Below, piece by piece: positions 11,079 through 30,936 of a stretch of 47,260 bases of DNA. Where the stretch lies: assembly GCA_903864905.1 (NCBI GenBank), contig CAIPHR010000052.1:1-47260 (forward strand), in the 5' to 3' direction. Both the position numbers and the translations under genes were made by a program. Each line of letters opens with the position of its first letter. Position 1 is the stretch's first letter. The stretch is from an uncultured bacterium. Its GTDB lineage: Bacteria; Patescibacteriota; Minisyncoccia; Phycocordibacterales; PALSA-1337. Below the pieces are notes generated by a model. It had not been told where the DNA came from, did no database searches, and saw nothing but the letters and a program-made list of their open reading frames with translations.

Positions 11079-12217
11079 AAAGGATTTTGTGCACCTCTTA
11101 TCTCAAAGTGTATATGTGGACCATATGTCCAACCAGTCATACCAATATTGCCTATCTTTTGGCCCTGTTGTACTTTTTCACCGACCGAAACCGTTGGCTT
11201 GGTCATATGCGCATATAGAGTCTGGGTTCCATTACCATGAGAAATAACAACATAATTTCCATAACCACCATTCCAAAAACCATTTGTCTTGGCTATTATC
11301 ACGGTACCTCCTGCTGAAGCAAGTATAGATGTACCAACAGGAGCAGCAAGGTCGATAGCATTGTGACCATGCAAACATTGACTCCTATAGCCACCAGAAA
11401 CAGGTCTGGAATAATACTTTGTATATGCTGGTAATTTCTTTCCTGCATCGATAAGTGGCTCAATCCTTGAATCCCTAGTTCCACATTTAGCAACAATATT
11501 GATAGATATATTGGCTGGACTTGAGTTATCTCCTGAAACTTCAGCGTCTGGAACAATGATAGTCTGGCCGACGACTATAGCAGTAGACACTGTCATATCA
11601 TTATAACTCAATATATCATTGGTAAATTGATCCAAATCTTCTGAATTTGCACCAAAATGTTTAGCTATACCTTTGATCGTATCACCTTTCTTTACCGTAT
11701 AGGAAATACCTGAAATAGGGAGTATAACTAGCGTCTGACCAATCTTCAATGTTGATTTCCCTGTAAGATCATTGGCCCAAAGTATTGTATTCACTGAAAC
11801 TTTGAACATTTTAGCTACTCCAGATATCGTATCTCCCTGTCGTACAATATAGGTACTAATCTGCATATTGGAAGTATCTACACTATCAGCATTACTACTA
11901 GCTAGATCTGAATTCAAAGTATTGTTATTATCTACAGGAACAATATCTGATCTCTTCTCTGGGTTTGGATCAATATTAACTGCATAATATTGAAGGATAG
12001 GAAATGTTTGTGAATTTGTAGACGGGATCTTTCTATCAACTTTAGCCGATACTGATTCAGTATAAAACATAGAAGACAACGTCGAAACTATACCAGCTTG
12101 TGCCGTATCATGAAAAATAATTGCAGAAATAAATATAAAAACAAAAACCACTAGGGTGGTAAATATAATGTTATAAAAATAACTAGATTTTATTTTATTT
12201 TTTTGTTCTAATTTCAT
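11075..12217 (-). CDS. LysM-repeat M23 metallopeptidase (cell-wall hydrolase), membrane anchored
   Basis: 380-aa ORF with an N-terminal TM, two LysM-like repeats (YIVRQGDTISGVAKMF, YTVKKGDTIKGIAKHF) and M23 motifs HNAIDLAAPVGT and GPHIHFEIR. Confidence 0.9.
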   Translation of the reverse strand: MKLEQKNKIKSSYFYNIIFTTLVVFVFIFISAIIFHDTAQAGIVSTLSSMFYTESVSAKVDRKIPSTNSQTFPILQYYAVNIDPNPEKRSDIVPVDNNNTLNSDLASSNADSVDTSNMQISTYIVRQGDTISGVAKMFKVSVNTILWANDLTGKSTLKIGQTLVILPISGISYTVKKGDTIKGIAKHFGANSEDLDQFTNDILSYNDMTVSTAIVVGQTIIVPDAEVSGDNSSPANISINIVAKCGTRDSRIEPLIDAGKKLPAYTKYYSRPVSGGYRSQCLHGHNAIDLAAPVGTSILASAGGTVIIAKTNGFWNGGYGNYVVISHGNGTQTLYAHMTKPTVSVGEKVQQGQKIGNIGMTGWTYGPHIHFEIRGAQNPF

Positions 12218-14507: not shown

Positions 14508-15401
14508 ATGGATCTACCAGCAAAAAAATCACTTGGCCAACATTTTTTGACATCCAGACATGTACTAGAACAGATAATATCTGCATCAAAGATACAAAAA
14601 GGTGAGTATATATTGGAAATAGGACCAGGAACTGGAATATTGACCAGAAGCCTACTCGAAGCAGGTGCGAATGTTCTAGCTATTGAAAAGGATAATCGCG
14701 CTATCGATCTACTACGTGAAAAATTCAGTAATGAATGTCAAAATGGGCAATTGAGTGTAATAGAGGGGGATATTTTGGATAAAACATTCAATTTTATTGA
14801 TCTTTTTTCAGATTTTAAACGAAATAATCCATACTCAGAGCCAAAATATGGCAATAATTCAGTAAAACGTGCCAATTATTCTATAGTTTCAAATATCCCT
14901 TATTACATAACAGGTGCAATACTAGAAAAATTCCTAGAACATGAACCTAGACCAAATCGTATGATTTTACTAGTTCAAAAGGAGGTTGCAGATAGAATCG
15001 TATCAAGATCATCTACCGACATAGAAAAGGGCAACAGAAAGGAAAGTATACTGTCTATATCAGTAAAAGCCTTTGGTGAGCCATATTTTATCGCAAAAGT
15101 ACCGAGAGGCGCATTCTCGCCACCACCAAATGTTGATTCGGCTATTCTGACTATAGAAAATATCTCTGATCATCATTTTAAGGAAAATAATGTTGACATA
15201 AATGACTTTTTTTCCATTCTCAAGGCTGGTTTTGCTCATAAAAGAAAATTTGCATTGAACAATATTACAGAACGAATTCCAGATATTGAAAAAATAGAAA
15301 ATATCAGGAAAACATGGTCCGACCTAAAACTAGACAATAAAATAAGAGCGGAAAAAATATCACTTTCTGACTGGTTTCTCATAGCAAGTAAAATCTCATA
15401 A
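14508..15401 (+). CDS. rsmA: 16S rRNA dimethyladenosine transferase (KsgA)
   Basis: 297-aa ORF with KSLGQHFL, EIGPGTGILT, SNIPYYIT, FSPPPNVDS. Confidence 0.9.
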   Translation: MDLPAKKSLGQHFLTSRHVLEQIISASKIQKGEYILEIGPGTGILTRSLLEAGANVLAIEKDNRAIDLLREKFSNECQNGQLSVIEGDILDKTFNFIDLFSDFKRNNPYSEPKYGNNSVKRANYSIVSNIPYYITGAILEKFLEHEPRPNRMILLVQKEVADRIVSRSSTDIEKGNRKESILSISVKAFGEPYFIAKVPRGAFSPPPNVDSAILTIENISDHHFKENNVDINDFFSILKAGFAHKRKFALNNITERIPDIEKIENIRKTWSDLKLDNKIRAEKISLSDWFLIASKIS

Positions 15402-15476
15402 CTTATTGCTGTCATACATAATACGTTATCCCCAAAAAGATGAGGAATAAACAATGTTTCTTGCTATAATTGTTGC

Positions 15477-16364
15477 ATGGTAATTGCCCGCCCTCGTTCA
15501 CAAACGTTGATCATATCTGTCGTATGCGTTATTGCTATTGCAATAGTATTATTGATGACAAAAAATGGCATAGCATCTCCTCAAAACTCAGACCAAAATA
15601 TTGTTAATTCCAGAGTAGATATAGGAGCTGCTACAAATACAAACCCTATATCAAACAATGACGATTGGAAAAAATCCTTCATAACAGATACGGTGACTAC
15701 TGGTAGATCTCAAGCTTCATCAACTTCTGTATTAGATGCCCCAGAAGAAACTATGACTGGGATTTTTGGTAAGAATACATTGATCAGTTATATGGCCCTC
15801 AAACAAACAGGCATGAATGCTGATCCAGACTCAATAGATGCGGCTGGACAAACTGTTATATCATCTGCTATCAATTCCAAAACTCCTACATTTTATGTTA
15901 TTGATGATCTAAATATAACGACGAGATCTGGAGTAGATGCACTAGCTGTTTTCAATGTAGAAATTGCAAATACTTTTTCTTTATACACTGCGAAACAAAA
16001 TGAAACCACGATCGCTAGTCAATCTGTAGAAAAGAAAGATCCTGAATTACTAAAGAAAATATCCCCAATAATAACAAACTACCAGCAGATTATCGACAAT
16101 TTAAGGAAGATGCAAACTCCATCAGTGCTGTCTATGGATATGTTAAAACTTATCAACGGTTTCAGTGTCATGAAATTCAATGCGGAATCATTACAAATGA
16201 TCCACAGTGATCCTCTACGTGGCTTACTCGGTATCAATAATTATCAAGACGGGATAAGACAGATCATGGATGCGATCATCAGCCTGCGAGCAAATATAGA
16301 ATCGAGAGGAGGAAAACTGATATTTGATGGAAATTTTATCAATGTAATGTTGAGTATTTCTTGA
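15477..16364 (+). CDS. Hypothetical N-terminally anchored protein; first gene of the T4SS-like cluster
   Basis: 295-aa ORF with TM LIISVVCVIAIAIVLLM. TGcTATAAT at 15462-15470, 6 nt before the ATG. Ends in TGA. Confidence 0.6.
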   Translation: MVIARPRSQTLIISVVCVIAIAIVLLMTKNGIASPQNSDQNIVNSRVDIGAATNTNPISNNDDWKKSFITDTVTTGRSQASSTSVLDAPEETMTGIFGKNTLISYMALKQTGMNADPDSIDAAGQTVISSAINSKTPTFYVIDDLNITTRSGVDALAVFNVEIANTFSLYTAKQNETTIASQSVEKKDPELLKKISPIITNYQQIIDNLRKMQTPSVLSMDMLKLINGFSVMKFNAESLQMIHSDPLRGLLGINNYQDGIRQIMDAIISLRANIESRGGKLIFDGNFINVMLSIS

Positions 16365-16382
16365 ATAAATATTTCATAAAAA

Positions 16383-18074
16383 ATGAAAAGATATATTTCA
16401 CATAAACTTGCCCTTCTAGCTATGACTATAGCAACTATATCAATTATATTTTTTCCATTTGGAGCAAGAGCACAAAGCCTTAGCGGCATCGCTGGTGGTG
16501 TTGGTGGCTCTATAGTATCTTGTACATTAACGGGTCTATTGGGAAGCATCAATATCGGTAGTTTACTTGGTGGGGCACCAAGTATACCAGCAGTAGGTGG
16601 TGTTGGTGGTAGTAGTGAAGTTCCTGTAAAAGATCAGAGGGTTAGAGATAATACTGATTCCATAAAAGCGAGCCAGACTTTCCAAAAACAAAAAGAGTGT
16701 TCACTAGACGGACTAGCTTGGGCAGTTGGTGCGCAACTACTACGAGCAATGTCAGATGAGATCATCAACTGGATCAATGGAGGATTCAATGGTTCACCTG
16801 CTTTCATGCAAGACCCAGAAGCATTCTTTTTGGACCAAGCCGATCAATTGACCGGTGCCTTCATAAGCGCTAACGGCCCACTAAAGGGACTTTGCGGATC
16901 CTTCGGTTTGGATATAAAACTTTCTTTGGCAACAAGACAAGTCAGTCGTATTCAAGATAGATACAAATGTACACTGAGTTCTATTGTAAGGAATGCTAGC
17001 AATGCACATCTAAATGTTTCTGTTGGAACAAGTCCAAATGGCGCAACCTTGGGATCTCTTACCGATGGAAGTGTACTTGGCAACTCCAATCAATTGAGTG
17101 TGAATGGAAACAGTGTGAATGGTATACAAAGTACTTTTGAAAAAGGTGGTGGTTGGGCTGGTTTCCTAGCACTAACTACCGAACCACAGAATAGTCCTGT
17201 AGGAGCATATCTCATGAGCAGGGCTGACCTAGATGCACAGATAGCCAATAGAAAAAAGAATACAAACACTGAACTAGATCGTGGTAATGGATTCTTCTCT
17301 TGGAAAAAATGTACACCGAGTGCTACTACACCAGGAGCACAAAAATGCGAAATACAAACTCCTGGTTCTGTCATAGAGAGTTCTCTCAACAAAACACTTG
17401 GAGCTTCTGTTGATAGGTTGAATGCTGCTCATGAATTGAATGAGATCATCGATGCTTTCTTCAGTAAACTACTCACAACAACATTGAAAAATGGACTTGG
17501 TACCATCAGTCTCAAAGCTTCTGGACAAACACAGTCTATGTTGAGTCAACTATCAGCAAATAGTGCATCTGCAACTAGTGCTTCTAGTGCTGCTACACTA
17601 CAACAGATGTCATCAAACACTAGTACATACATACAACCGATGACTGATTTCAAATACTTTAGAGATCAAACATTGTCTTCACTTCAGGCTGAACAGTTCT
17701 ATTCAAATTCAGTGCTCGCTGCTTGTCAGAACCAAGGTAGTCGCAATCAAGATGTTATCGATAGTCTAACTACTTATATAGAAGAAACTATAACCCCAAT
17801 GGTTAATCTTGCCCAAGTCAATGCGACTGATGCCGAAACTCGCTTGACCGCTATACAGAACCTACAGACAGCAGTCCAGTCAGGTGATACTCAAGGCGCT
17901 AGTACTATCTATGCACAGATAATAGGGAACAACTACCTAGTATCTGTTAGTGATCTGCAGACAGCACACGAAAATGTTGGTATCGCTACAACTACAGCAA
18001 ATACTTGGCGTATTCAGGAAAATAGGTATGGTTTGCAATGCGGTCTCTCGAATGCAAGTTCGACACAGATGTAG
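16383..18074 (+). CDS. Hypothetical secreted protein (Gly-rich N-region, large Ser/Thr/Gln-rich body)
   Basis: 563-aa ORF with a signal-like N-terminus ending FGARAQS, then GGVGGS-type glycine tracts. No motif I can name. Confidence 0.6.
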   Translation: MKRYISHKLALLAMTIATISIIFFPFGARAQSLSGIAGGVGGSIVSCTLTGLLGSINIGSLLGGAPSIPAVGGVGGSSEVPVKDQRVRDNTDSIKASQTFQKQKECSLDGLAWAVGAQLLRAMSDEIINWINGGFNGSPAFMQDPEAFFLDQADQLTGAFISANGPLKGLCGSFGLDIKLSLATRQVSRIQDRYKCTLSSIVRNASNAHLNVSVGTSPNGATLGSLTDGSVLGNSNQLSVNGNSVNGIQSTFEKGGGWAGFLALTTEPQNSPVGAYLMSRADLDAQIANRKKNTNTELDRGNGFFSWKKCTPSATTPGAQKCEIQTPGSVIESSLNKTLGASVDRLNAAHELNEIIDAFFSKLLTTTLKNGLGTISLKASGQTQSMLSQLSANSASATSASSAATLQQMSSNTSTYIQPMTDFKYFRDQTLSSLQAEQFYSNSVLAACQNQGSRNQDVIDSLTTYIEETITPMVNLAQVNATDAETRLTAIQNLQTAVQSGDTQGASTIYAQIIGNNYLVSVSDLQTAHENVGIATTTANTWRIQENRYGLQCGLSNASSTQM

Positions 18075-18094
18075 ATCCACAACATCAATAATAT

Positions 18095-20086
18095 ATGAAA
18101 AGACTAAGACCTTATATATTCATAGCCATCATCACGATAGTTGTATTCGGTGTTTTCGCAAATGTTGTACAGGCGCAAACAACGTCAGGAGCGCAAGGTT
18201 CGGCAGCCGTTAATACTCCACTGGGGGGGACGGTTACTGGTGCGGCAGTTGGAAATTCAAATGCAGCTGCAACAAGTTCATGGATGACTGACCTTGGAAA
18301 TGCAATAAGTGATGTTTTTCTAGGTGGTATAGTAAGATATGTAACTGGAGCAATGGCTATCGTAGCTTGGGTCATACTGTCTGTATGTGGTTGGTTACTA
18401 TCAGCATCTGGAGTATTGCTCAATGTATCGATGTATCTGACGACGCATCTCGCATCATTCATCAATAATACCCCTGTTATATATACTGTATGGGGCATCA
18501 TTAGAGACCTGTCGAGCACACTACTCATATTCTTTATCCTATACGCAGCTATACAGATGATACTAGGTTTACAAGATGCAAAATACGGCGAATTGATAAA
18601 AAATATCATTATCGTAGGAGTACTGATAAACTTTAGTTTCTTCTTTACTAGAACGCTCATCGATCTATCGAATATAGTTTCCTTGGAATTCTATAGCGCC
18701 ATGGCTCCAACGAATACAGCTGCTGAAACATCAACCAAGACTGCAGATACGGATGGACTTGTAAAGTCAATGCTGACATCTGGTGGCATATCAAATATCA
18801 TTATGGGTGCTATCAGTATAGATAATTTCTGGAAAAATAGTGCAACAAGCGGGAAGGCACTATTTATCTATAACGACAATCAAGCAAATATAAATATAGT
18901 TATATTGGAAGTTGGTGCTATAGTGGTTGTAGTTTTCACGATCATTGATTTCCTGGTTATCTCTCTCATATGTATAGCTAGGGTAGCAATACTACTTTTC
19001 CTTCTTGGTTTCTCTCCTATATGGATAGCAGCAAAAGCTATCCCTCAGCTCGAGGAAATTTCAGGACAATGGATGAAACAATTCAAAGCTCAACTACTAT
19101 TCCTACCTGCATATCTAGCATTCCTATACGTTGCTCTGAAAATCGTCACTGCAAGCAACCTATCAAATGTGATAGCAGCTCAAGGTATGGGAACAACTCC
19201 AGATGTTCTATGGGGAAATATGATCAATCTAGTAGTAGGATTCAGTATCATTATTTTCTTATTAAATATCCCTATAATTGCAGCAGCAAAAGTAGCTGGC
19301 GTATCTGGCGGTTTCATATCAAAGGCTTATAGCAGTATGACAAAGAAGGTAGGAAGCTGGACAAAGTCTGGAGCAAGTGGTGCTGGAGCATGGGCTGGTA
19401 GAAATACCGTAGGCGCAGCAGCATCCAGGTTAAACCAGAGCAGCGCAATGAGAAACTTCTACGCAAACAATCCTAATGCTGGTTTATTGGTTTCAAAAAG
19501 ACTTTCCAGTATAGGTTCTGCTGGTTTTGGTGGTAAGAAGGGTGGATACGAAGGTGCACTCAAATCAAAGGTCAAGGATATTGAGGCGCTAAATAAACAT
19601 ATTGGTACAGTTGATGAAAGTTTATACTCAAATCAAGAGGATATAGACAATGCAAAAGATAATGCAAAACTAGCACAAGCTAGATTTGCAACTAAACTAC
19701 CAAATCGGTCTATATTAAATATATTCAAAGATAGGGCTAATAAACAGGCTCAAGTCAAAATAAATAAAGCGAAGAAGAAAGAAGATGCAATAAAAAACCT
19801 AAAAACATACAAAGATAGAAATAAAACAATTGATAATGAAATTGATGCACTTGAAGCAAAAATTAAATCTGATGATACTGCAGTAGGGTTTGCTCGACCA
19901 AAGGGTGCTGACCATAAAGACATAGCACGGCTAGAAGCACTAAAAAATGAAAAAGTTGAATTGGAAAAGTCAATAAATGATGCACAAAAAGACAAGGACG
20001 AGGCTGGCCTTGAAACACTTGTCAAATTGCTCGATAAAAAAGGAGAAAGTGGTGAAGAAAAGCCAAAAGATAAACCAAAACCATAG
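18095..20086 (+). CDS. Polytopic membrane protein, VirB6/TrbL-like by topology, with Lys-rich coiled-coil tail
   Basis: 663-aa ORF with a signal-like N-terminus, multiple hydrophobic spans over residues ~70-400, and a KKKEDAIKNLKTYKDRNK...EKPKDKPKP tail. Sits in a cluster with VirB4. Confidence 0.5.
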   Translation: MKRLRPYIFIAIITIVVFGVFANVVQAQTTSGAQGSAAVNTPLGGTVTGAAVGNSNAAATSSWMTDLGNAISDVFLGGIVRYVTGAMAIVAWVILSVCGWLLSASGVLLNVSMYLTTHLASFINNTPVIYTVWGIIRDLSSTLLIFFILYAAIQMILGLQDAKYGELIKNIIIVGVLINFSFFFTRTLIDLSNIVSLEFYSAMAPTNTAAETSTKTADTDGLVKSMLTSGGISNIIMGAISIDNFWKNSATSGKALFIYNDNQANINIVILEVGAIVVVVFTIIDFLVISLICIARVAILLFLLGFSPIWIAAKAIPQLEEISGQWMKQFKAQLLFLPAYLAFLYVALKIVTASNLSNVIAAQGMGTTPDVLWGNMINLVVGFSIIIFLLNIPIIAAAKVAGVSGGFISKAYSSMTKKVGSWTKSGASGAGAWAGRNTVGAAASRLNQSSAMRNFYANNPNAGLLVSKRLSSIGSAGFGGKKGGYEGALKSKVKDIEALNKHIGTVDESLYSNQEDIDNAKDNAKLAQARFATKLPNRSILNIFKDRANKQAQVKINKAKKKEDAIKNLKTYKDRNKTIDNEIDALEAKIKSDDTAVGFARPKGADHKDIARLEALKNEKVELEKSINDAQKDKDEAGLETLVKLLDKKGESGEEKPKDKPKP

Positions 20087-20089
20087 AAC

Positions 20090-20815
20090 ATGAAACAATT
20101 CACATCAGAAGAAATACAAGCTCAATTCGAAAAGCTTCCAAAGGACTTACAGGAGGCGGTGGCTTCTGCTTCAATAACCGAAAGCATAGAATTGATCGGA
20201 AAAAAGTATGAACTTCACGTTGATCAAATTGGTGAGCTTATTGATCTTGTTGGCATGATAATGTTTGGGCTTATTCCGTCAGGTCAGTTTATAAAAAACT
20301 TTTCATCTAACTCTGGTGTCAAAACTGATATAGCTAGAAGCATAGCTGAGGATATTAACAGCGAGATATTTAGCAAATTGAAAACTACGATGAGAACAGC
20401 GGAGGAAGTTATTGAGAAAAAAAATCTTGCCGACCTAGAAGCCCTTGAAAAAGCTGGTGGTTTTACTATAGACAGGGAAGAAAATGCTGAAAATACGTCA
20501 ATTTCAGATAGTAGTAGTATTGGCAGCAATAATTCAACAGAACCGAATGTACTAGATGTAGATAAGGCTAGTATACTCAATGATATTGAATACCCAACTG
20601 CTAGCAGAGAAGTTTCTGGTGAGAAATATATACCCCATACAGAGCCTTTAGTTGATCTACTATTATCAATACCGACAACAAGTACTGAGAAAAAGGTATC
20701 TGTAGAGATGATACATTCGGATTCAGGTATTAAAAACTCAGAAAAAACCCCACCTACACCGCCACCAATACAAAAACCGAAAGCTGCGGATCTATATAGG
20801 GAGGCTACCAAATAG
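20090..20815 (+). CDS. Hypothetical soluble protein (acidic, Pro-rich C-terminus)
   Basis: 241-aa ORF starting 4 nt after the previous stop; no recognisable motif. The antisense ORF 20284-20862 is judged a shadow. Confidence 0.5.
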   Translation: MKQFTSEEIQAQFEKLPKDLQEAVASASITESIELIGKKYELHVDQIGELIDLVGMIMFGLIPSGQFIKNFSSNSGVKTDIARSIAEDINSEIFSKLKTTMRTAEEVIEKKNLADLEALEKAGGFTIDREENAENTSISDSSSIGSNNSTEPNVLDVDKASILNDIEYPTASREVSGEKYIPHTEPLVDLLLSIPTTSTEKKVSVEMIHSDSGIKNSEKTPPTPPPIQKPKAADLYREATK

Positions 20816-20844
20816 GATGATGAATACAATAAGTAATTGAAGTA

Positions 20845-20948
20845 ATTGCAAAACCTTTTCATTTCCGATATGAGGCTACTAAATGTATGTACAAATTAGA
20901 ATACTACATCTCACTAGCCGATTGGAGGAAGTGAAAAGGTTTTGCAAT
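20845..20948. repeat. 104-bp long imperfect hairpin: 22-nt inverted arms (21/22 complementary) around a partly self-pairing 60-nt core
   Basis: ATTGCAAAACCTTTTCATTTCC (20845-20866) versus GGAAGTGAAAAGGTTTTGCAAT (20927-20948). Inner GGCTA/TAGCC and ATGTA/TACAT pairs. T5 at 20952-20956. Confidence 0.85.
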
Positions 20949-21012
20949 TGATTTTTGAAATTGGGTAAGCTTCGCTTCCACAAATCCTCATTCGACGCTA
21001 TAATACATATCA

Positions 21013-21447
21013 ATGCGTTTTCAAGTTCCCCAATTTATAGAGGTTGAGGACAAAATCTTCGGACCTTTAACTCTGAAGCAGTTTATCTACTTGGCTGGTG
21101 GTGGAGGTCTTTCGTTTCTGATCTATGCAATGCTGAATAGTCTTTTTCTATCTATACTGCCCATCATTATAATATTGGCAATATCAGCATCTATGGCTTT
21201 TTATAAATTAAATAACAAACCATTGATCAGTGTCATCGAAAATGCTTTCAAGTTTTATGTTGGAAACAAACTATATATTTGGAAAAAAGAACCAAAACCA
21301 AGACCACAAAATCAACAAGAAGCAACAAAAGACGCAAAGAATTTTGCTTCTATCATGGTACCAAAGATCTCTGACAGCAAACTGAAAGACCTAACATGGA
21401 GTCTAGATATCAAAGAAAGTGTGTATTCAAATAAGAACCAAAAATAA
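21013..21447 (+). CDS. PrgI/VirB3-like small membrane protein
   Basis: 144-aa ORF starting MRFQVPQFIEVEDKIFGPLTLKQFIYLAGG, followed by two TM spans, immediately upstream of the VirB4-type genes. TATAAT at 20999-21004, 8 nt before the ATG. Confidence 0.5.
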   Translation: MRFQVPQFIEVEDKIFGPLTLKQFIYLAGGGGLSFLIYAMLNSLFLSILPIIIILAISASMAFYKLNNKPLISVIENAFKFYVGNKLYIWKKEPKPRPQNQQEATKDAKNFASIMVPKISDSKLKDLTWSLDIKESVYSNKNQK

Positions 21448-21450
21448 AAC

Positions 21451-22083
21451 ATGGCTTCACAATCAAAAACAACTCAAGACTTCGTACCGATCAAAGAGAT
21501 CCGAGATGGTGTGATCGTACTCAAGAATGGTGGCATGAGATCTATCATACTTGCTTCATCGCTCAATTTTGCTCTGAAATCACAAGACGAACAGAGTTCT
21601 ATCTTGATACAATTCCAGAACTTTCTCAACTCTCTAGATTTTTCTATACAGATCAGTATACAATCAAAAAAACTAGATATCAGGCCATATCTAGCACTTC
21701 TAGAGGGTAGGTACAAAGAGCAAGGAACTGAACTAATGAAGATACAAGTTAGAGAATATATAGAGTTTATCCGTACATTCGTGGAGAGCACCAATATCAT
21801 GTCAAAAAGCTTCTTTGTTGTCATACCTTATGATCCTCCAATGATGACTATTTCACAAAATCCTCTTTCTAGATTCCTACCAAAAAAGAAAAGTGGTGCC
21901 AATAACTTCGACGAACAATTCCAAGAATATCGAAGTCAGCTCGAGCAGAGAGCCTCTGTCGTAGAGCAGGGACTTGTGCGTTGTGGTATCCGTAGTGCAG
22001 AACTAGGAACAGAAGAAGTGGTAGAATTGTATTACAAACTATTTAATCCAGGTGAAACAGAGAAGCCTATTCAGATCACATAA
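21451..22083 (+). CDS. Stand-alone protein resembling a VirB4 N-terminal domain (no ATPase motifs)
   Basis: 210-aa ORF. TQDFVPIKEIRDGVIVLKNGGMRSIILASSLNFALKSQDEQ resembles the N-terminal segment of Gram-positive VirB4/TrsE-type proteins. No Walker motifs. Confidence 0.45.
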   Translation: MASQSKTTQDFVPIKEIRDGVIVLKNGGMRSIILASSLNFALKSQDEQSSILIQFQNFLNSLDFSIQISIQSKKLDIRPYLALLEGRYKEQGTELMKIQVREYIEFIRTFVESTNIMSKSFFVVIPYDPPMMTISQNPLSRFLPKKKSGANNFDEQFQEYRSQLEQRASVVEQGLVRCGIRSAELGTEEVVELYYKLFNPGETEKPIQIT

Positions 22084-22089
22084 AATACT

Positions 22090-23928
22090 ATGTCTATATT
22101 TTCAAAATTATTAGGAAAAAAAGAAGAGAACAATCCTATCGTTTCTATACTCCCAGAAGAGATATACCAGGCTGGTGTTTTGGAGCTCAAAGATGTTATA
22201 GCCCCTTCAGCACTAAAGGTTAGTCCAAAAGAACTGAACCTTGGTGAAAAAGTTGGTAGGACACTATTCGTCATATCATATCCTCGCTTTTTGGATGAGA
22301 GCTGGTTCGCACCGATAATAAACTTGGATAAAATATTTAATGTCTCTATTTTTATACATCCAGTAGATACTGCCAAAATATTGAGACACTTCCAGAAAAA
22401 GGTAGCAGAAGTACAAAGCCAGATATCTAGAAGGGAAGACAAAGGTCTAGTCAGGGATCCTGCACTAGACACAGCATACCAGGATCTAGAAGCACTACGT
22501 GATCAGTTGATGCAGGCACAGGAGCATCTTTTTGACGTTGGAGTCTACATAACACTCTTTGCTGATAACAGTGCTGAACTAGACAAACTAGAATCGGAGA
22601 TCAAATCATTGCTAGAATCAAAACTAGTGTATCTAAAACCTGCCCTATTCCAACAAGAACAAGGCTTCAAGTCAGTTATACCGATATGTGATGATGAACT
22701 TGCTGTCAATTCAAAACTCAATTCATCACCATTGTCATCACTATTTCCATTCGTATCATTCGACCTAACCTCAGATAAGGGAATACTTTATGGAATAAAT
22801 AGACACAATTCTTCTCTAGTACTTTTTGACAGATACCTATTGGAAAACTATAACTCTGTTACTTTCGCAGTTGCTGGTGCAGGAAAATCGTATTGTACGA
22901 AATTGGAAATCCTAAGAACACTCATGTTCGATACTGATGTTATCGTTATAGACCCTGAAAAGGAGTATGAATATATGGCAGAAGCAACTGGTGGTAAGTA
23001 TTTCAATATATCCCTAAACTCTGAACACCATATCAACCCATTCGACCTGCCAATACCACGTGAAGACGAGTCTGCATCTGATGTTTTGCGATCAAATATC
23101 ATCAACCTGGTTGGGCTTTTCCGTATAATGCTAGGTGGTCTCACTCAAGAAGAAGACGCCATCATAGATCGTGCAGTTACTGAAACTTATGCATTGAAAG
23201 ATATAACATCAGAATCCAATTTCAAAAGCGTAGAACCGCCTCTATTATCAGACTTCGAACTAGTTCTAGCTGGTATGGAGGGTGCTGACTCACTGGTTCA
23301 AAGACTATCTAAATATACAAAAGGTACTTGGTCAGGATTCATCAATAGACCATCGAATGTGGATATCAACAAGAAATTTGCCGTATTTTCACTTCGAGAC
23401 ATGGAAGATGAGTTGAAACCTGTTGCAATGTATATAGTCACACACTATATATGGAATGCTATACGCAAGAATCTAAAGAAGCGTCTACTAGTCATCGACG
23501 AGGCTTGGTGGATGATGAAATCAGAAGATACGGCTTCATTCCTGTTTGGTTTGGCAAAAAGGGGTCGTAAATACTTCCTTGGACTAGCTACTATCACGCA
23601 GGACGTTGATGATTTCTTGAAATCTCCTTATGGTCTACCTATCCTTACAAACTCATCTATACAAATACTACTCAAACAATCTCCAACTGTTATCGACCAT
23701 ATACAACAAACATTCAATCTGACTGATGAAGAGAAATACCTACTACTAGAATCTGACGTAGGGGAGGGAATGTTCTTCGTAGGACTCAAACATGTTGCAA
23801 TAAAGATAGTTGCTTCATATACTGAGGATCAGATCATAACCACCAATCCTGCTCAAGTACTACAGATACAGAATGCAAAGAAGGAATTGGAAGCAGCTGA
23901 AGCAGGTAAAGCTTCAACTACTATATAA
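22090..23928 (+). CDS. virB4: VirB4/TrsE-family type IV secretion ATPase
   Basis: 612-aa ORF with Walker A AVAGAGKSY, Walker B LLVIDEAWWMM, and TITQDVDDF. N-domain: GRTLFVISYPRFLDESWFAPII...SIFIHPVD. Confidence 0.85.
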   Translation: MSIFSKLLGKKEENNPIVSILPEEIYQAGVLELKDVIAPSALKVSPKELNLGEKVGRTLFVISYPRFLDESWFAPIINLDKIFNVSIFIHPVDTAKILRHFQKKVAEVQSQISRREDKGLVRDPALDTAYQDLEALRDQLMQAQEHLFDVGVYITLFADNSAELDKLESEIKSLLESKLVYLKPALFQQEQGFKSVIPICDDELAVNSKLNSSPLSSLFPFVSFDLTSDKGILYGINRHNSSLVLFDRYLLENYNSVTFAVAGAGKSYCTKLEILRTLMFDTDVIVIDPEKEYEYMAEATGGKYFNISLNSEHHINPFDLPIPREDESASDVLRSNIINLVGLFRIMLGGLTQEEDAIIDRAVTETYALKDITSESNFKSVEPPLLSDFELVLAGMEGADSLVQRLSKYTKGTWSGFINRPSNVDINKKFAVFSLRDMEDELKPVAMYIVTHYIWNAIRKNLKKRLLVIDEAWWMMKSEDTASFLFGLAKRGRKYFLGLATITQDVDDFLKSPYGLPILTNSSIQILLKQSPTVIDHIQQTFNLTDEEKYLLLESDVGEGMFFVGLKHVAIKIVASYTEDQIITTNPAQVLQIQNAKKELEAAEAGKASTTI

Positions 23929-23969
23929 TAAACAAGAAATCTGTTTCAATCTAATGGTATAATTGGTTC

Positions 23970-24506
23970 ATGGCGCAGAGACAAGACAAATCAAAAGGTT
24001 GGTTACTACTATATATATTTTCTGGTGGCATGGATCTGATTCAGTTCGTATTTATCGAGCTCATTTTGGGCTGGTTTGGTGTAGGAGTAGTAGTAAATGA
24101 GATAATTGACCCAATAGTTGGTATCATAATCGGTTGTTGGATACAGTTTGGAAAAAAAGTTTCACTGATATCGCGCCCAAAACGTATTATATCCATGTTC
24201 GGGACTGAAGCTGTTGGTGCACTAACTAGTGGCATAGCACAACTATGGGTTCTAGATGTTTGGTATATTCATAACGACGTAAAGAAAGAAGAAGCGGAGC
24301 TAAAAGCACAAGAAGCCAAGGATCTGGCTATACAGTCATCTAATGGTGAACAAAATATTGATGGCACCAGATACCCTAGAAATCCTTACAATACATCTAT
24401 GCAAGGCCCTGTTAATAAAGACGGGGTACGATTACCTCGTGGTGGAATGAGACCAATAAATAGCAGGATTGCTTTACCTGATACAAAACCACCAATTATA
24501 AAGTAA
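23970..24506 (+). CDS. Hypothetical membrane protein
   Basis: 178-aa ORF with 2-3 hydrophobic spans in the first ~100 aa. TGgTATAAT at 23955-23963, 6 nt before the ATG. Confidence 0.55.
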   Translation: MAQRQDKSKGWLLLYIFSGGMDLIQFVFIELILGWFGVGVVVNEIIDPIVGIIIGCWIQFGKKVSLISRPKRIISMFGTEAVGALTSGIAQLWVLDVWYIHNDVKKEEAELKAQEAKDLAIQSSNGEQNIDGTRYPRNPYNTSMQGPVNKDGVRLPRGGMRPINSRIALPDTKPPIIK

Positions 24507-24588
24507 ATCATATAGTTATACTGATCAATATGTATTCATCCACAATTCACATACTTCTTCATCAGTATTCATGGTAAAATAATATGCA

Positions 24589-25620
24589 ATGATACGCTGT
24601 TCTAATAAACAATTCGTATTGCTTTCAGTTATTATTGTTTTTTCAATGTTTCTTTTTACTTCTAGAACAATAGCACAAGGAATACCGATGTCTGATGGCC
24701 TCAATATCACATTATCTACTGACAACCCTTTGCCAGGTCAAGTAGTCAGTATCACCGTGAATAGTTATGGTGCAGATATTAGCGCTGCAAAAATGGTTTG
24801 GTCAGTAAATGGAAAAGTAGTAAAGAATGAAATTGGTTTGAATACTATAGATGTAAATGCTCCAGCTCTAGGAGCAAAACTCGAAGTCACGATCACTGCA
24901 ACAACGCCAGATGGTTCCGTTGTGCGAGGCTCCACCACCATCACATCTGGAGTAGTCGATATGATAGTAGAATCAGATGGCTATGTACCTCCCTTATTCT
25001 TTGGCAAAACGGCTATCGGATACCAGAACTCAGTCAAAATAACAGCTATTCCTCATCTCGCCAATTCATCAGGAAAAGAATATGATGCGAGCAAACTAGT
25101 CTATAGGTGGAAAAAAGGTGGCTCTCTCATTCAAGAAAAATCTGGTTATGGAAAACAGTCTATTGTCATTGCTGGTGATATCATCCCTAGAGCATATGAG
25201 ATGGAGGTGACTGTATCAGAAAGTACGAGCGGTGCTCAGGCTGTAGGTATTTCACTCATAGAACCACAGGAACCTAGTATCTCTTTCTATGTGAATGACC
25301 CTCTATATGGCACTCTATATAATAGAGCGATCGGTAATAGTATGGGTATAGGTTCTCAGAATGAAAGGGGAATTCTCGCTGTACTTTTTGGTTTCAATAA
25401 TGGAACATCTCTATCTTGGCTCATCAATGGCGAATCTCACCCTGAACTCAATGATAAATCATCAGTTATTCTGAGATCTTCTAGTGCAGATGGTGGCTCC
25501 TCTATCGTTCACCTTGATGCTAGTAATGCGAACAATATTCTACAGGGAGCAAGGTCAGAATTTACGGTTTTATTTGGCCCGTCAAGTGATGCTACTACTA
25601 CAAATAGTTATCAACTATAA
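24589..25620 (+). CDS. Hypothetical secreted protein, beta-rich (Ig-like-looking repeats)
   Basis: 343-aa ORF with a signal-like N-terminus (VLLSVIIVFSMFLFTSRTIAQG). TGgTAAAAT at 24572-24580, 8 nt before the ATG. Confidence 0.55.
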   Translation: MIRCSNKQFVLLSVIIVFSMFLFTSRTIAQGIPMSDGLNITLSTDNPLPGQVVSITVNSYGADISAAKMVWSVNGKVVKNEIGLNTIDVNAPALGAKLEVTITATTPDGSVVRGSTTITSGVVDMIVESDGYVPPLFFGKTAIGYQNSVKITAIPHLANSSGKEYDASKLVYRWKKGGSLIQEKSGYGKQSIVIAGDIIPRAYEMEVTVSESTSGAQAVGISLIEPQEPSISFYVNDPLYGTLYNRAIGNSMGIGSQNERGILAVLFGFNNGTSLSWLINGESHPELNDKSSVILRSSSADGGSSIVHLDASNANNILQGARSEFTVLFGPSSDATTTNSYQL

Positions 25621-25622
25621 AA

Positions 25623-26825
25623 ATGAACAATGCCAATAAAAAAACCATATCTTTCATAATGAGTGTACTCATCACCACTACCATGTTTATCGGTGTTTTA
25701 TCTATCAATACTACTCAACTGGTAAATGCCGAAGGTCCTGCATATACTCTTCTAGAACCTTTGCCAAAAGTAACTCAGAGTGGACAAGTCAGTATGGAAC
25801 CAAGCGTTTCATTATCTACATATATACAAGACGCTATCAATCTTTTCATTGCTCTGTCTGCAGTATCTGCTGTTTTCATGATTGTATGGGGCGGTCTAGA
25901 ATATATGACTACTGATTCGTGGAAAGGTAAAGATGATGGAATAAAAAAGGTTAAAAATGCGGTAATTGGGTTAATAATGGTTCTTTCAGCGGTTCTCATA
26001 TTGAAAACTGTCAATCCACAACTCATCGAAGTTGCTAAAATACCGAGTATTCAAGGTGAGTTGAAAACTAGTAGCTTAGATACTTTTAGAAATGCGGGGA
26101 GTCTATCTGGTGCGGCAATAAATCAACAAGTAGCACAAACAACTCAACAATCAAATACTACTGCTTCAAATATAGTGGCACAAAACAATAGTCTTGTTTC
26201 ACTGCAGCAACAATATAATGATTTGGCATATGAAATGGCTCTAACTACAGATTCTGATACATATTCCGAACTCGAAGCGCAACAACAAGAAATACAAGAT
26301 CAAATATCTGGCACAATAAACACAAGAACAGTACAAGAAACAGCATTATATTTTAATTCTCAATTACGACCAAATGTTGAAAACCCTAATAATATGGAAC
26401 AACTTAATACGGCTCTTGCAAATATTGGTAGATCATATGGTACTGCTTCATCTAATCTTCAAAGAAATGGACAATTTGATTTAACAGAATTAAATAATCA
26501 ATATAACTATAGTGAAGCCTCACTAAATATTATGCGAGCAAACCTTGCACTTAGCTCGGCACAGATTAATAGTTCTAGTATGGGAACGAGTCCAGGTACA
26601 GGAGGGGGTTTATCAGTTATTATGACAAACCCTGAAACAGGTGTAAATTTCAATAGACCACTAACCCCGACTGAGGCATATAATAATCTACGAGGCCTAT
26701 TGAACACTGCATCTTCTGGTATTAATAATGTATCCGACCAAACACTAAAAACAAACTTACAAAATCAAATACAGGCTGCTATGTCTAGTTTAAATGCCTC
26801 TCAAATTGGTAGATACGGACATTAA
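25623..26825 (+). CDS. VirB2/TrbC-type pilin-like two-TM module fused to a ~270-aa Gln/Asn/Ser/Thr-rich C-terminal extension
   Basis: 400-aa ORF. Signal/TM1 (ISFIMSVLITTTMFIGVLSI...VNAEGP), LLEPLP motif, TM2 (INLFIALSAVSAVFMIVWGGLEYM), a short KGKDDGIKKVKN loop, then TM3 (AVIGLIMVLSAVLILKTVNPQL). A low-complexity tail follows. Confidence 0.5.
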   Translation: MNNANKKTISFIMSVLITTTMFIGVLSINTTQLVNAEGPAYTLLEPLPKVTQSGQVSMEPSVSLSTYIQDAINLFIALSAVSAVFMIVWGGLEYMTTDSWKGKDDGIKKVKNAVIGLIMVLSAVLILKTVNPQLIEVAKIPSIQGELKTSSLDTFRNAGSLSGAAINQQVAQTTQQSNTTASNIVAQNNSLVSLQQQYNDLAYEMALTTDSDTYSELEAQQQEIQDQISGTINTRTVQETALYFNSQLRPNVENPNNMEQLNTALANIGRSYGTASSNLQRNGQFDLTELNNQYNYSEASLNIMRANLALSSAQINSSSMGTSPGTGGGLSVIMTNPETGVNFNRPLTPTEAYNNLRGLLNTASSGINNVSDQTLKTNLQNQIQAAMSSLNASQIGRYGH

Positions 26826-26837
26826 GATAATAATCAT

Positions 26838-28208
26838 ATGCCACAAAATAACAGATCACCAATTGTATACATCGTTCCGATCATAATAGTACTTATTCTG
26901 ATTGGCCTAGCTTTCTATATCATTTTCAATCGCAAATCCTCAGTAACAACCACTAACACTACCAACAGTCAAGATGGTAGCTTCACACCTTTTGGTACTA
27001 TACCTCCACACTCTACAACTACTGCTGTTACACGTACTACAGTATCCACCAATACACTTAGCAGTTATTCGAACAATAAGATATCTCTCAGACTTCTCAG
27101 TAATACACCAGTTGGTGGTTATGGTGCTAGCACAACAGCATCTACTACAATAGTCAGATGGGTAGACCGAGGAAGAGGGAATATATATGAAGCACGTTAC
27201 AATGATCCAAACATTATAACTATATCGAATACTCTAGTTCCAAAAATATACAACAGTACCTGGAATAAAAATCTCACAGCATTCATCGGACCAACGATAC
27301 AAGACACCATATCAGAACCTTCAACATTATATGCTGAAATAAGAGCGAGAATTGTACCTATCATATCCAGCTCAACCAAGAAGACGAGCTCTACGACTCC
27401 ACAAACATCGACATCGACAGCTTTAGCATCAAGTACTATAGTAGCACCAGGAACATCATTCATTGGGCAAACTCCTTATGAATTGAAAGGAAAGAATCTC
27501 CCAGCACATATCATCACATATGCAGCATCACCAAAGATGGACAAGATATTCTTCCTAGTGAATGAATCTGGCTATGGAGTAGGTTATACTGCTAGTTTCG
27601 ATGGTAAATCAGTCACGAAAATATTCAGCACACCTATATTGCAGTTAAATGCAGAGTGGCCAGAAGAGAATACTATAGCGCTAACAACCAAAGGATCTGC
27701 CCTATACGGTGGTTTCCTTTACTTTGTGAACCCAAAAACAGGGGCATGGAAGAAGATAATAGGTCCGATTTTGGGTCTTAGTACAAAAGTCAGTCATGAT
27801 GCCAAATATGTATTGGCTTCATCAGCAGAAACTAACTCTGTTAGTACAGCAATATTCAATATATCAACACAAAAATACACTACAGCTTTAGTAAAAACAA
27901 TTGCTGATAAATGTACTTGGGGGAATTTCAATGCAGCAATGGTCTATTGCGCAGTTCCTTCACAATCAGTACCTGGTTTATATCCTGATGATTGGTATAG
28001 GGGTATTATTGCATTTGCAGACAAACTATGGCAACTAAATGCTAGTTCTGGTGAGATACATCTAGTATCTACTATAGTAGATCAATCTGACCGAGTAATA
28101 GATGCTATCAACCTAGGTCTAGATCCAAAAGATGAATATCTATTCTTCATGAATAAAAATGACCTATCACTATGGTCATATGATCTAGTTAGTGGAAAAG
28201 TTAGATAA
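26838..28208 (+). CDS. Hypothetical membrane-anchored protein with Thr/Ser linker and beta-propeller-like body; last gene of the cluster
   Basis: 456-aa ORF with TM IVYIVPIIIVLILIGLAFYIIF, Thr-rich tracts, and repetitive beta-strand-like segments. Confidence 0.55.
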   Translation: MPQNNRSPIVYIVPIIIVLILIGLAFYIIFNRKSSVTTTNTTNSQDGSFTPFGTIPPHSTTTAVTRTTVSTNTLSSYSNNKISLRLLSNTPVGGYGASTTASTTIVRWVDRGRGNIYEARYNDPNIITISNTLVPKIYNSTWNKNLTAFIGPTIQDTISEPSTLYAEIRARIVPIISSSTKKTSSTTPQTSTSTALASSTIVAPGTSFIGQTPYELKGKNLPAHIITYAASPKMDKIFFLVNESGYGVGYTASFDGKSVTKIFSTPILQLNAEWPEENTIALTTKGSALYGGFLYFVNPKTGAWKKIIGPILGLSTKVSHDAKYVLASSAETNSVSTAIFNISTQKYTTALVKTIADKCTWGNFNAAMVYCAVPSQSVPGLYPDDWYRGIIAFADKLWQLNASSGEIHLVSTIVDQSDRVIDAINLGLDPKDEYLFFMNKNDLSLWSYDLVSGKVR

Positions 28209-29312: not shown

Positions 29313-29447
29313 TTATACAGCAACACGCTTACGACCCTTACTCCTGCGACGAGCAAGCACTTTTCGTCCTGAGGTCGTCTTCATGCGTACTCGAAAACCA
29401 GGAGATTTTGCACGCTTCCTCTTTTTTGGATTATATGTGAATGACAT
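29313..29447 (-). CDS. rpmH: 50S ribosomal protein L34
   Basis: Not in the ORF track (44 aa). Minus strand ATG 29447 to TAA 29313 translates to [44 protein letters not shown]. Confidence 0.9.
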
Positions 29448-29586: not shown

Positions 29587-30936
29587 ATGCAAGACTATTC
29601 AAAAATGTGGCAAACGGCTTTAGTAGAAATAGAGACAATAGTGTCTCAAGCAAACTTTTCGACCTGGTTCAAAGAAACAAAGATACTGAAAGAAAATGAG
29701 GGAACAGTATATCTAGGTGTACCAAACTCATTTACACAAGAATGGTTATACAAAAAGTTTCATAACAATATATTACGTATACTTAGGGAAATGAATGATG
29801 GTATAAGAGCCCTAGAATACGTCATAACTAAAGAAAATGAGAAGTCACGCTCCAATGATGCAAAGAAGAAGGTTGTTGCTACGCCAACAATATCAATGCC
29901 TTTGCATGATTTCTATATAAACAAAGAGGATAACTTGAATCCTCGTTACACTTTTGATAATTTTGTAATAGGGCCATTCAATGAGCTTGCACACGCAGCT
30001 TCTCAAGCGGTCATAAAGAGCCCTGGTTTGGCTTACAATCCATTATTTGTATATGGAAGCACTGGTAGAGGTAAAACTCACCTTATTCAAGCTGTAGGCA
30101 ATCAAATAAAGAGACTTCACCCAAACAAAAAGGTCTTCTATCTAACATCAGAGAGGTTTGGTTCTGAGTTTTTCGTTGCAATTCAAGAAAACAAGGTTCA
30201 ACCATTCAAGGATAAATATAGAAAATATGATGTAATGATCATGGACGATGTACAATTCTTCTCACACAAAGAAAAATTCCAGGAAGAGTTATTCCATTTC
30301 TTCAATACTTTCCATGATACAGGAAGACAGCTAGTGTTTTCATCAGATAGACACCCAAACGTTATCCCTGGGCTAGAAGCTCGCCTAAGAGGCAGATTCA
30401 GTGTAGGAATGATAGTTGATATACCAGAACCAGATCATGAGTCTAGGATGGCAATAGTGAGAACCAAGTGTGGTATACACAACATAACACTATCTACAGA
30501 TACTGTAGAATATTTATCTGGATCAATAAATGATAATATCCGTGAAATAGAAGGTATAGTCAATGTTATAGCCTGCCAGACACAGTTAAAAAATAGGGAA
30601 TTGAATATAAATGAGATAAAAGATATATTAAAGAACAGTATAAAACCAAAGAAAACCGTTTCAATAAAAGATATAGTAAAAATAGTTTCTGATTTCTACA
30701 ATATAGATGAAGATAGTATATACAACAAAACTCGCAGAAAAGAGGTGGTTAAGCCACGCCAAGTTGTAATGTATATGTTGCGTGAAGATTTCAATATATC
30801 TTTTCCATCAATAGGTGAGAAACTTGGTGGTAGAGACCATACAACTGTTATACATTCATATGAGAAAATAAAGGAAGATATCAAAACAAATACCGTATTA
30901 TTACAAGAGGTCAATCAACTCCGATCTATGTTATAA
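29587..30936 (+). CDS. dnaA: Chromosomal replication initiator DnaA
   Basis: 449-aa ORF with AAA+ Walker A GSTGRGKTHL, Walker B MIMDDVQF, and a C-terminal DNA-binding domain (VKPRQVVMYMLRE...GGRDHTTVIHSYEKI). Confidence 0.95.
   Translation: MQDYSKMWQTALVEIETIVSQANFSTWFKETKILKENEGTVYLGVPNSFTQEWLYKKFHNNILRILREMNDGIRALEYVITKENEKSRSNDAKKKVVATPTISMPLHDFYINKEDNLNPRYTFDNFVIGPFNELAHAASQAVIKSPGLAYNPLFVYGSTGRGKTHLIQAVGNQIKRLHPNKKVFYLTSERFGSEFFVAIQENKVQPFKDKYRKYDVMIMDDVQFFSHKEKFQEELFHFFNTFHDTGRQLVFSSDRHPNVIPGLEARLRGRFSVGMIVDIPEPDHESRMAIVRTKCGIHNITLSTDTVEYLSGSINDNIREIEGIVNVIACQTQLKNRELNINEIKDILKNSIKPKKTVSIKDIVKIVSDFYNIDEDSIYNKTRRKEVVKPRQVVMYMLREDFNISFPSIGEKLGGRDHTTVIHSYEKIKEDIKTNTVLLQEVNQLRSML

Follow-up and report, generated by a model that had tools for sequence, protein, structure and literature searches.

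A chromosomal type IV secretion system cluster beside dnaA in Patescibacteria, a probable host-contact pilus machine

We analysed a stretch of 47,260 nucleotides (nt) of contig CAIPHR010000052.1 (assembly GCA_903864905.1), hereafter the window, which holds a Paceibacteria-type locus with a type IV secretion system (T4SS)-like gene cluster. The cluster comprises eleven open reading frames (ORFs), g1 to g11, all on the forward strand between positions 15477 and 28208 (Table 1). Within transcription units the genes are 2-20 nt apart; wider gaps of 197, 41 and 82 nt precede g5, g8 and g9. An earlier note, made from the sequence alone, had drawn the same eleven co-directional genes with tiny gaps, and its coordinates proved exact. 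It was also right about the flanks, rsmA on one side and yidC-rnpA-rpmH-dnaA on the other, and about the presence of comM and a PilB ATPase gene in the window.

Table 1. Genes, promoter elements and neighbouring features of the cluster (window positions; aa, amino acids)
Feature	Position	Strand	Description
g1	15477-16364	+	295 aa; N-terminal membrane anchor (aa 10-28), extracellular domain; no known family
g2	16383-18074	+	563 aa, secreted; signal peptide, Gly-rich linker, conserved Cys-containing helical domain, C-terminal three-helix bundle
g3	18095-20086	+	663 aa; extended VirB6/TrbL-like polytopic protein; signal peptide; coiled-coil, Lys-rich C-terminal tail
g4	20090-20815	+	241 aa; helical N-terminal domain, weak hydrophobic segment (aa 50-68), disordered tail
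g5	21013-21447	+	144 aa; PrgI/VirB3-like small membrane protein (PF12666)
g6	21451-22083	+	210 aa; TrsD/TraD-like (NCBIfam TrsD, 3.5e-6); 6 nt upstream of g7
g7	22090-23928	+	612 aa; VirB4 ATPase core, monoderm CD1110 family
g8	23970-24506	+	178 aa; small polytopic membrane protein, 2-3 hydrophobic segments; fast-evolving
g9	24589-25620	+	343 aa, secreted; signal peptide; weak Ig_3, BiPBP_C, PKD and Big_2 matches in orthologues
g10	25623-26825	+	VirB2-like pilin with C-terminal extension; signal peptide; two-helix hairpin (aa ~74-130)
g11	26838-28208	+	456 aa; N-terminal membrane anchor, Ser/Thr-rich linker, conserved extracellular domain
Extended -10, unit 1 (g1-g4)	15462-15470	+	TGcTATAAT, ends 6 nt before g1 ATG
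Promoter, unit 2 (g5-g7)	20977-21004	+	TCCACA, 16 nt, TATAAT; -10 ends 8 nt before g5 ATG
Extended -10, unit 3 (g8)	23955-23963	+	TGgTATAAT, ends 6 nt before g8 ATG
Extended -10, unit 4 (g9-g11)	24572-24580	+	TGgTAAAAT, ends 8 nt before g9 ATG
Terminator-like hairpin	20844-20949	+	18-nt perfect inverted repeat at base, then U-run
rsmA	14508-15401		Upstream flank; PcrA/UvrD helicase gene before it
yidC, rnpA, rpmH	29313-29447 (rpmH)	-	Downstream side of the cluster
dnaA, then dnaN	29587-30936 (dnaA)		Downstream of the cluster
comM	9549-11078		Same window
PilB-type ATPase gene	37772-39451		Same window
LysM + M23 peptidase gene	11075-12217	-	3.3 kb upstream of the cluster
Tyrosine recombinase gene	3139-4062	-	SAM-like N-terminal domain, Xer-type architecture; 11 kb upstream of the cluster
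501-aa ORF	7570-9075	+	Between pnp and a dksA-like gene

Scanning a single genome for each species gave 80 related loci (L001-L080), with a VirB4 76-95% identical to that of the window. Synteny and identity comparisons were made on the 39 species-level loci, from Paceibacteria, with full 10-kb flanks. Plasmid searches covered 72,556 plasmids, and the VirB4 protein search covered 5.8 billion proteins.

The g7 product scores 372 bits against the NCBIfam CD1110 family model (cut-off 325) and matches Pfam P-loop_TraG with an E-value of 5.6e-26. Its Walker A (AVAGAGKS, residue 260) and Walker B (LLVIDE, residue 466) motifs are both intact. The g5 product matches its Pfam family with an E-value of 6.8e-11 (43 bits against a cut-off of 27) and is present in all 39 loci. 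The best 120 VirB4 matches are 91-100% identical to the window protein, with hundreds of database relatives in that range, and all of the best matches with a named source come from Patescibacteria (Paceibacterota, Parcubacteria, Taylorbacteria). The closest plasmid-encoded VirB4s, from monoderm elements of Firmicutes and Actinobacteria, share 28-35% identity with that of the window. By sequence similarity, the window VirB4 is assigned to the Patescibacteria VirB4s, of the monoderm MPF-FATA-related type.

The earlier note had named VirB4, VirB6, PrgI and pilin components and counted seven further genes as proteins without a recognisable motif. That count stands for six of them; the seventh, g6, is TrsD, the detached N-terminal domain of VirB4. 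The protein matches the first ~120-230 positions of VirB4 models and can be aligned with residues 20-197 of a 797-aa plasmid VirB4 that is not split (E-value 1e-10). It is encoded by a separate ORF in 79 loci.

We did not find a direct Pfam or NCBIfam match for g3 itself, and its assignment is indirect. A homologue, P0181 (E-value 1.7e-19 to g3), passes the Pfam TrbL cut-off with 34.3 bits against 25.9, and 3 of 41 g3 orthologues match TrbL weakly. With the AlphaFold model (mean pLDDT 78.9) as query, the top seven Foldseek matches in the PDB are all chains of the R388 TrwJ/VirB5-TrwI/VirB6 stalk complex (probability 0.97-1.0, ~300 aligned columns, TM-score on target 0.43-0.51); the next PDB matches are unrelated membrane proteins with a probability of at most 0.14. 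We accept g3, which is present in 39/39 loci, as VirB6-like, as the earlier note had suggested, with the caveat that the resemblance is weak by sequence and leans on a homologue and a predicted fold.

The pilin gene g10 is single at the window locus and not part of an array. Its product matches T4SS_pilin (PF18895) at aa 63-129 with an E-value of 6.1e-9 and 36.3 bits against a cut-off of 26.6. VirB4, PrgI and the pilin thus all score above the hidden Markov model cut-offs of their families, and the earlier recognition of these three as true homologues is borne out. The hairpin is followed by an extension of ~270 aa (aa ~135-400) that is rich in N, S, Q and T and hypervariable. A pilin is found in 37 of the 39 loci, and among the orthologues the hairpin is 37-49% identical and the extension 3-9% identical. 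The part after the last hydrophobic segment ranges from 2 to 503 aa (median 212).

The order rsmA, g2, g3, PrgI, TrsD, VirB4, g9, pilin, g11, yidC, dnaA, dnaN is kept across the 39 loci. The only departures are two minor ones, each in a single locus: an upstream g9 match (L054) and a PrgI on the opposite strand (L047). In many genomes g1, g4 and g8 escape detection by tblastn. There is a steep conservation gradient within the cluster, the cytoplasmic parts being highly conserved and the surface parts diverging fast. Median identity to the orthologues is 81% for VirB4, 64% for TrsD and 56% for PrgI, against 60% for DnaA and 49% for DnaN, and it is 26-36% for g1, g2, g3, g4, g9, g10 and g11. VirB4 is 78-95% identical across the 39 species, and in every one of the 39 genomes its identity exceeds that of DnaA.

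No relaxase, VirD4/type IV coupling protein (T4CP) or VirB11 Pfam family is matched by any large ORF of the window, and a tblastn search with monoderm VirD4 gave nothing in the window or within 10 kb in the 80 loci. Pfam and NCBIfam scans did not find VirB7, VirB9 or VirB10 families either. These results agree with the earlier note, which had reported no VirD4, relaxase or VirB11. Its further statement that the flanks carry no relaxase, VirD4 or integrase holds for the first two, but a tyrosine recombinase gene lies upstream. By its architecture this recombinase looks like XerC/D, a housekeeping enzyme, and it stands among housekeeping genes.

The recombinase bears on the question of whether the cluster is an integrated conjugative element (ICE), or the decaying remnant of one, with its relaxase and coupling protein outside the window. 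In favour of this, VirB4, PrgI, TrsD and VirB6 have homologues among the conjugation proteins of monoderm plasmids and ICEs, with the same core order, and many Patescibacteria genomes encode coupling-protein homologues elsewhere (PMC12102498). Against it, the chromosomal position between rsmA and yidC-dnaA is identical in 39 species, and VirB4 is constrained more strongly than DnaA. The GC content of the cluster (0.37-0.40) is no different from that of the flanks, every ORF is intact, the promoters are conserved, no VirD4 lies within 10 kb in the 80 loci, and housekeeping genes separate the Xer-type recombinase from the cluster. We reject this explanation, which we regard as extremely improbable, because of the invariant synteny, which by itself largely refutes it, the conservation of VirB4, the base composition and the lack of VirD4, relaxase and VirB11 families in the window. 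The earlier view of the cluster as a chromosomal machine is upheld by the same synteny, by the VirB4 to DnaA comparison and by the flank-like composition. Conjugation is an unlikely function.

The remaining six genes encode envelope and secreted proteins. Searches of 72,556 plasmids by tblastn with g2, g9 and g11 gave no match, and at the sequence level these three appear to be lineage-specific additions. With family profiles of g1, g2, g3, g4, g9 and g11, no significant match was obtained among all PDB sequences; TolB for g11 (E-value 0.13) and generic coiled coils for g2 and g3 came closest. Among the PDB chains, the profiles of g1, g4 and g11 found no VirB8, PrgL, TraM or TcpC, and family scans found no hydrolase domain in g1-g11.

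The secreted protein g2 is present in 39/39 loci, directly upstream of VirB6, in the VirB5/TraI slot. In the virB operon, virB5 sits just before virB6. All detectable homologues of g2 are unnamed hypothetical proteins, and the few with a source label are from Patescibacteria. Its AlphaFold model has a mean pLDDT of 69.5, with the C-terminal bundle above 90, and a Foldseek search with it gave generic helical bundles only, with no VirB5, TraC or TrwJ. The idea that g2 is a VirB5 equivalent is therefore a positional lead, resting on where the gene lies. A second lead comes from Pfam DUF4141, which is matched by 10 of 74 g2-family members (observed with P0204, P0213 and P0225), over aa ~17-55 only and in one case above threshold. 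DUF4141 proteins are encoded beside traJ, a VirB6 homologue, in Bacteroides conjugative transposons (PMC10434189). The matches include the signal peptide, and they link the two families weakly, as a lead and not as proof.

The g9 protein, found in 39/39 loci, probably consists of tandem Ig-like beta domains, judging from the weak domain matches of its orthologues. The extracellular domain of g11, also found in 39/39 loci, may be a beta-propeller, given faint TolB, DPPIV_N and DUF5050 propeller signals. For g1 we found no significant PDB or Pfam match; bacterial TSP3 repeats occur in 8 of 30 of its orthologues, and its slot is filled by an ORF of matching size and topology in 37/37 loci. The tail of g4 ends in a conserved DxYRE motif, and the slot of this gene is occupied in 37/38 loci; no significant PDB match was found for g4. 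The g8 gene is detected by tblastn in 6/39 loci, a small polytopic ORF occupies its slot in 33/39, and it is absent from at least four (L033, L034, L035, L037). Our searches gave no relatives of known function for g4 and g8.

In some relatives an additional gene lies between rsmA and g1 (L016, L079, L080; L001, L011, L055). It encodes either a ~540-aa polytopic membrane protein, for which 14-15 hydrophobic segments are predicted, or another anchored protein resembling g1. It is thus at its upstream edge that the cluster varies.

Four -10 boxes precede g1, g5, g8 and g9, where the earlier note had placed them, and they recur at the orthologues. Counting a box when it lies 4-11 nt upstream of the start, an extended -10 is found upstream of 14/32 g1 and 6/11 g8 orthologues and any -10 upstream of 51/73 g5 orthologues; for g9 the numbers are 29/70 (extended) and 42/70 (any). 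Internal genes do not have a recurring box (g3, 0/61 orthologues; g4, 0/43; g10, 2/57; g11, 2/54). The hairpin between g4 and the g5 promoter has a folding energy of -45.5 kcal/mol (z-score -8.4; none of 200 shuffles fold equally well) and is probably a terminator closing unit 1. Based on the box positions, their recurrence and the hairpin, we divide the cluster into the units g1-g4, g5-g7, g8 and g9-g11. Since the -10 boxes end 6-8 nt before the ATG, the mRNAs of the cluster would be leaderless, and no Shine-Dalgarno sequence was found at any cluster gene. It should be noted that a generic sigma-70 -35/-10 scan gave 52 sites against 55.8 in shuffled sequence, i.e. no enrichment. An extended -10 near the start is found at ~10 of 39 gene starts in the window against 0.12 expected by chance. 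The promoter signal is the position of the extended -10 relative to start codons, and not the number of sites.

Systems of this class have been described before. Quiñonero-Coronel et al. 2025 (Microb Genom, PMC12102498) reported a monophyletic Patescibacteria VirB4 clade related to MPF-FATA; in their survey, TrsD, PrgI/VirB3, VirB6 and VirB2-like genes are widespread near virB4, there are hardly any relaxases, and virB4 in Paceibacteria lies near dnaA, dnaN, rnpA, ksgA and rpmH. The window shares with this layout the genes for VirB4, TrsD, PrgI/VirB3, VirB6 and a VirB2-like pilin. It is likewise chromosomal, next to dnaA/dnaN/rnpA/ksgA (rsmA)/rpmH, with no relaxase or coupling protein nearby. 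We see no essential difference between the published layout and the window. A review of December 2025 counts the Patescibacteria systems as a recognised T4SS group (PMC12857230, section 22).

The core order of the window, VirB6 (g3), g4, PrgI, TrsD, VirB4, is shared with monoderm CTn2/CD1110-type modules such as that of Clostridium botulinum pCDC3875, in which single genes likewise separate VirB6 from PrgI and PrgI from VirB4. In one compact module on a Clostridium plasmid, the genes run VirD4, hypothetical, VirB6, PrgI, hypothetical, VirB4, hypothetical, SLT hydrolase; the window has neither the coupling protein nor the hydrolase, and a pilin is added to the core. A separate TrsD before VirB4 is a feature of the pGO1 subclass, pGO1/pIP501 (TrsC-TrsD-TrsE) (PMC12102498). 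Unlike the monoderm conjugative T4SSs, to whose VirB4s that of the window is at most 35% identical, the window cluster has no VirD4, relaxase or SLT/CHAP hydrolase, and it does not lie on a mobile element. It also has a VirB2-like pilin, which Gram-positive systems do not have (PMC12857230). Compared with the VirB systems of R388 and Agrobacterium (MPF-T), the g3 model is closest to the R388 stalk complex and g10 has the VirB2 hairpin, but the VirB7/9/10 outer-membrane core and VirB11 are missing, g2 has no detectable sequence or fold similarity to VirB5, and the g10 pilin is ~4 times longer than VirB2. Bordetella Ptl, Brucella VirB and Helicobacter ComB also run without VirD4 and relaxase (PMC12102498, PMC12857230). 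Lack of VirD4 and relaxase does not, therefore, mean that a machine is inactive. These three are diderm systems with VirB7-10 cores and known cargo (pertussis toxin, effectors and incoming DNA, respectively), unlike the window system.

The closest functional information comes from Southlakia epibionticum. Wang et al. 2023 (Cell, PMC10633639) showed by transposon sequencing (Tn-seq) that epibiotic growth requires its T4SS genes and pilins, and its T4SS cluster has no recognisable coupling protein or relaxase. The system of strain ML1 (SEML1_0006-0019) is, like that of the window, monoderm-type, furnished with pilins and, by locus-tag numbering, origin-proximal. It has six divergent short pilins, and peptidase and lysozyme genes by virB4 (PMC12102498, PMC12857230), whereas the window has one pilin gene with a long extension and no hydrolase in the cluster. 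The suggestion of the earlier note that the machine may be essential and linked to an episymbiotic life matches the Southlakia result and the survey (PMC12102498). A 2026 bioRxiv preprint describes tubular structures at a parasite-host interface that are possible T4SS pili (10.64898/2026.06.21.733656).

We consider it likely that the cluster is a Patescibacteria chromosomal T4SS that derives from monoderm (MPF-FATA) conjugation machinery, lacks coupling protein and relaxase, and serves as a host-contact pilus machine. As to function, we infer a pilus-forming machine for host-cell interaction, with a mechanism modelled on the structures of R388 and other T4SSs and on the literature. In brief, a VirB4 hexamer with TrsD would dock on a platform of PrgI/VirB3 and VirB6 at the cytoplasmic membrane and would spend ATP to pull the g10 pilin out of the membrane and to polymerise it into a pilus that crosses the cell wall. 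The variable g10 extension and the fast-evolving surface proteins g1, g2, g9 and g11 would face outward and contact the host cell. Pilus and channel together would form an attachment device and a conduit between episymbiont and host. The literature currently favours uptake of host macromolecules.

Several points weigh against this proposal. No VirB8-like or VirB1-like component was identified within the cluster, which leaves the crossing of the wall unexplained. It may be hard to accommodate an extension of ~270 aa on every subunit in a helical pilus of the VirB2 type, unless cleavage removes it or it is displayed on the outside. Support for g3 as VirB6 is marginal: the Foldseek E-values are 0.04-0.19, and an hhalign comparison of the g3 family with one Clostridium CD1112 VirB6 was not significant (probability 0.3). 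Essentiality has been shown only in Southlakia, a Saccharibacterium with a different cluster containing a pilin array and hydrolases (PMC10633639). Finally, a coupling protein could lie elsewhere in the genome, of which 47 kb are visible here; many Patescibacteria VirD4 homologues are far from virB4 (PMC12102498).

The same kind of machine might instead export proteins (effectors, toxins or adhesins), in the manner of Bordetella Ptl or the Streptococcus suis 89K T4SS and without a T4CP. Wang et al. proposed that the Southlakia T4SS 'may instead export proteins' (PMC10633639), protein-secreting T4SSs without a T4CP are on record (PMC12102498, PMC12857230), and the cluster encodes the secreted proteins g2 and g9. 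These two carry Sec signal peptides and are universally conserved, however, which fits structural parts better than cargo, and no effector candidate with a toxin or enzyme domain was found in or beside the cluster. We regard export as possible, though on balance unlikely.

A dedicated DNA-uptake (competence) machine, like ComB of Helicobacter pylori or archaeal Ced, taking in environmental or host DNA for transformation or as a source of nucleotides, was an option in the earlier note. The cluster lacks relaxase and coupling protein, as ComB does, and the comM and PilB ATPase genes that had prompted the idea do share the window. In addition, these organisms lack nucleotide synthesis, and the import of DNA or other macromolecules has been proposed (PMC12102498). 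The option is weakened by data from Southlakia, where deletion of comEC abolishes competence but not viability, whereas the T4SS is essential (PMC10633639; PMC12857230). Because comEC is dispensable and the T4SS is not, the essential role of the T4SS is unlikely to be ComEC-dependent transformation. Moreover, comM lies 4.4 kb from g1 with three genes between them (the M23/LysM peptidase gene on the opposite strand, pcrA and rsmA), and comM was seen in only 1 of 80 loci. Such a role for the cluster therefore appears improbable. The PilB-type ATPase was also considered as a stand-in for VirB11 and rejected; its length of 559 aa, its MshEN N-domain and its complete match to T2SSE mark it as a type IV pilus ATPase.

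A more specific version of the host-contact pilus can also be formulated, in which it feeds on a particular host. The g10 extension would decorate the surface of the pilus and set the host range, g2 would be the VirB5 equivalent, and VirB4 would import host nucleic acids without a coupling protein. If so, g2 would be placed at the tip of the pilus or on the platform formed by VirB6, and the conservation of VirB4 above that of DnaA would reflect import as the main nucleotide route. We find this detailed version doubtful.

The statement in the earlier note that function and most components are uncharacterised overstates the novelty, as the system class is already described. Novelty is low, since it has been published that such clusters exist, what they are made of, that they lack a relaxase and that they lie near the origin. 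What we add to the published survey, in so far as its consulted sections go (PMC12102498), is gene-level detail: the arrangement in four leaderless units, the extension of the pilin, and an account of six lineage-specific proteins and their conservation. The modest new points are this leaderless four-unit layout, the conservation of VirB4 above DnaA, the hypervariable pilin extension and the positional link between g2 and DUF4141. A large part of bacterial diversity belongs to the Patescibacteria, which live attached to other microbes, and their T4SS is among the few machines shown to be essential for an attached lifestyle. The window offers a clean and complete Paceibacteria layout, and its conservation map points to proteins for experiments, though it opens no new question.

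A few observations concern the neighbourhood and the source genomes. The order M23 peptidase gene (opposite strand), pcrA, rsmA, cluster is kept in 7/39 loci, those where the 10-kb flank reaches that far. The M23/LysM peptidase may supply the wall hydrolase that the cluster lacks, or it may be an ordinary enzyme of the cell wall or cell division. VirB1-like proteins with M23/LysM domains occur near virB4 in Paceibacteria (PMC12102498). DnaA-box-like sites are present in the rpmH-dnaA and dnaA-dnaN intergenic regions. The Rfam search found two tRNAs only, and no structured RNA within the cluster.

Many of the genomes with the locus (L002, L006-L008, L010 and others) are labelled 'uncultured Candidatus Saccharibacteria bacterium'. 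Their VirB4s are 80-93% identical to VirB4s of Paceibacterota, Taylorbacteria or Parcubacteria. The labels look like loose taxonomy from bulk submissions of metagenome-assembled genomes.

Throughout the window, operon-first genes have a TGnTAnAAT box that ends 5-10 nt before the start, and there is almost no Shine-Dalgarno sequence. Start-proximal boxes are found, for example, at 3139-4062 (reverse strand), 7570, 9549, 15477, 21013, 23970, 24589, 39688 and 41203 (reverse strand). This suggests that leaderless mRNAs are the normal mode of expression in the source organism. The 501-aa ORF at 7570 matches no significant Pfam family; a promoter of the leaderless type (TGcTATAAT) of its own lies 9 nt ahead of its ATG.

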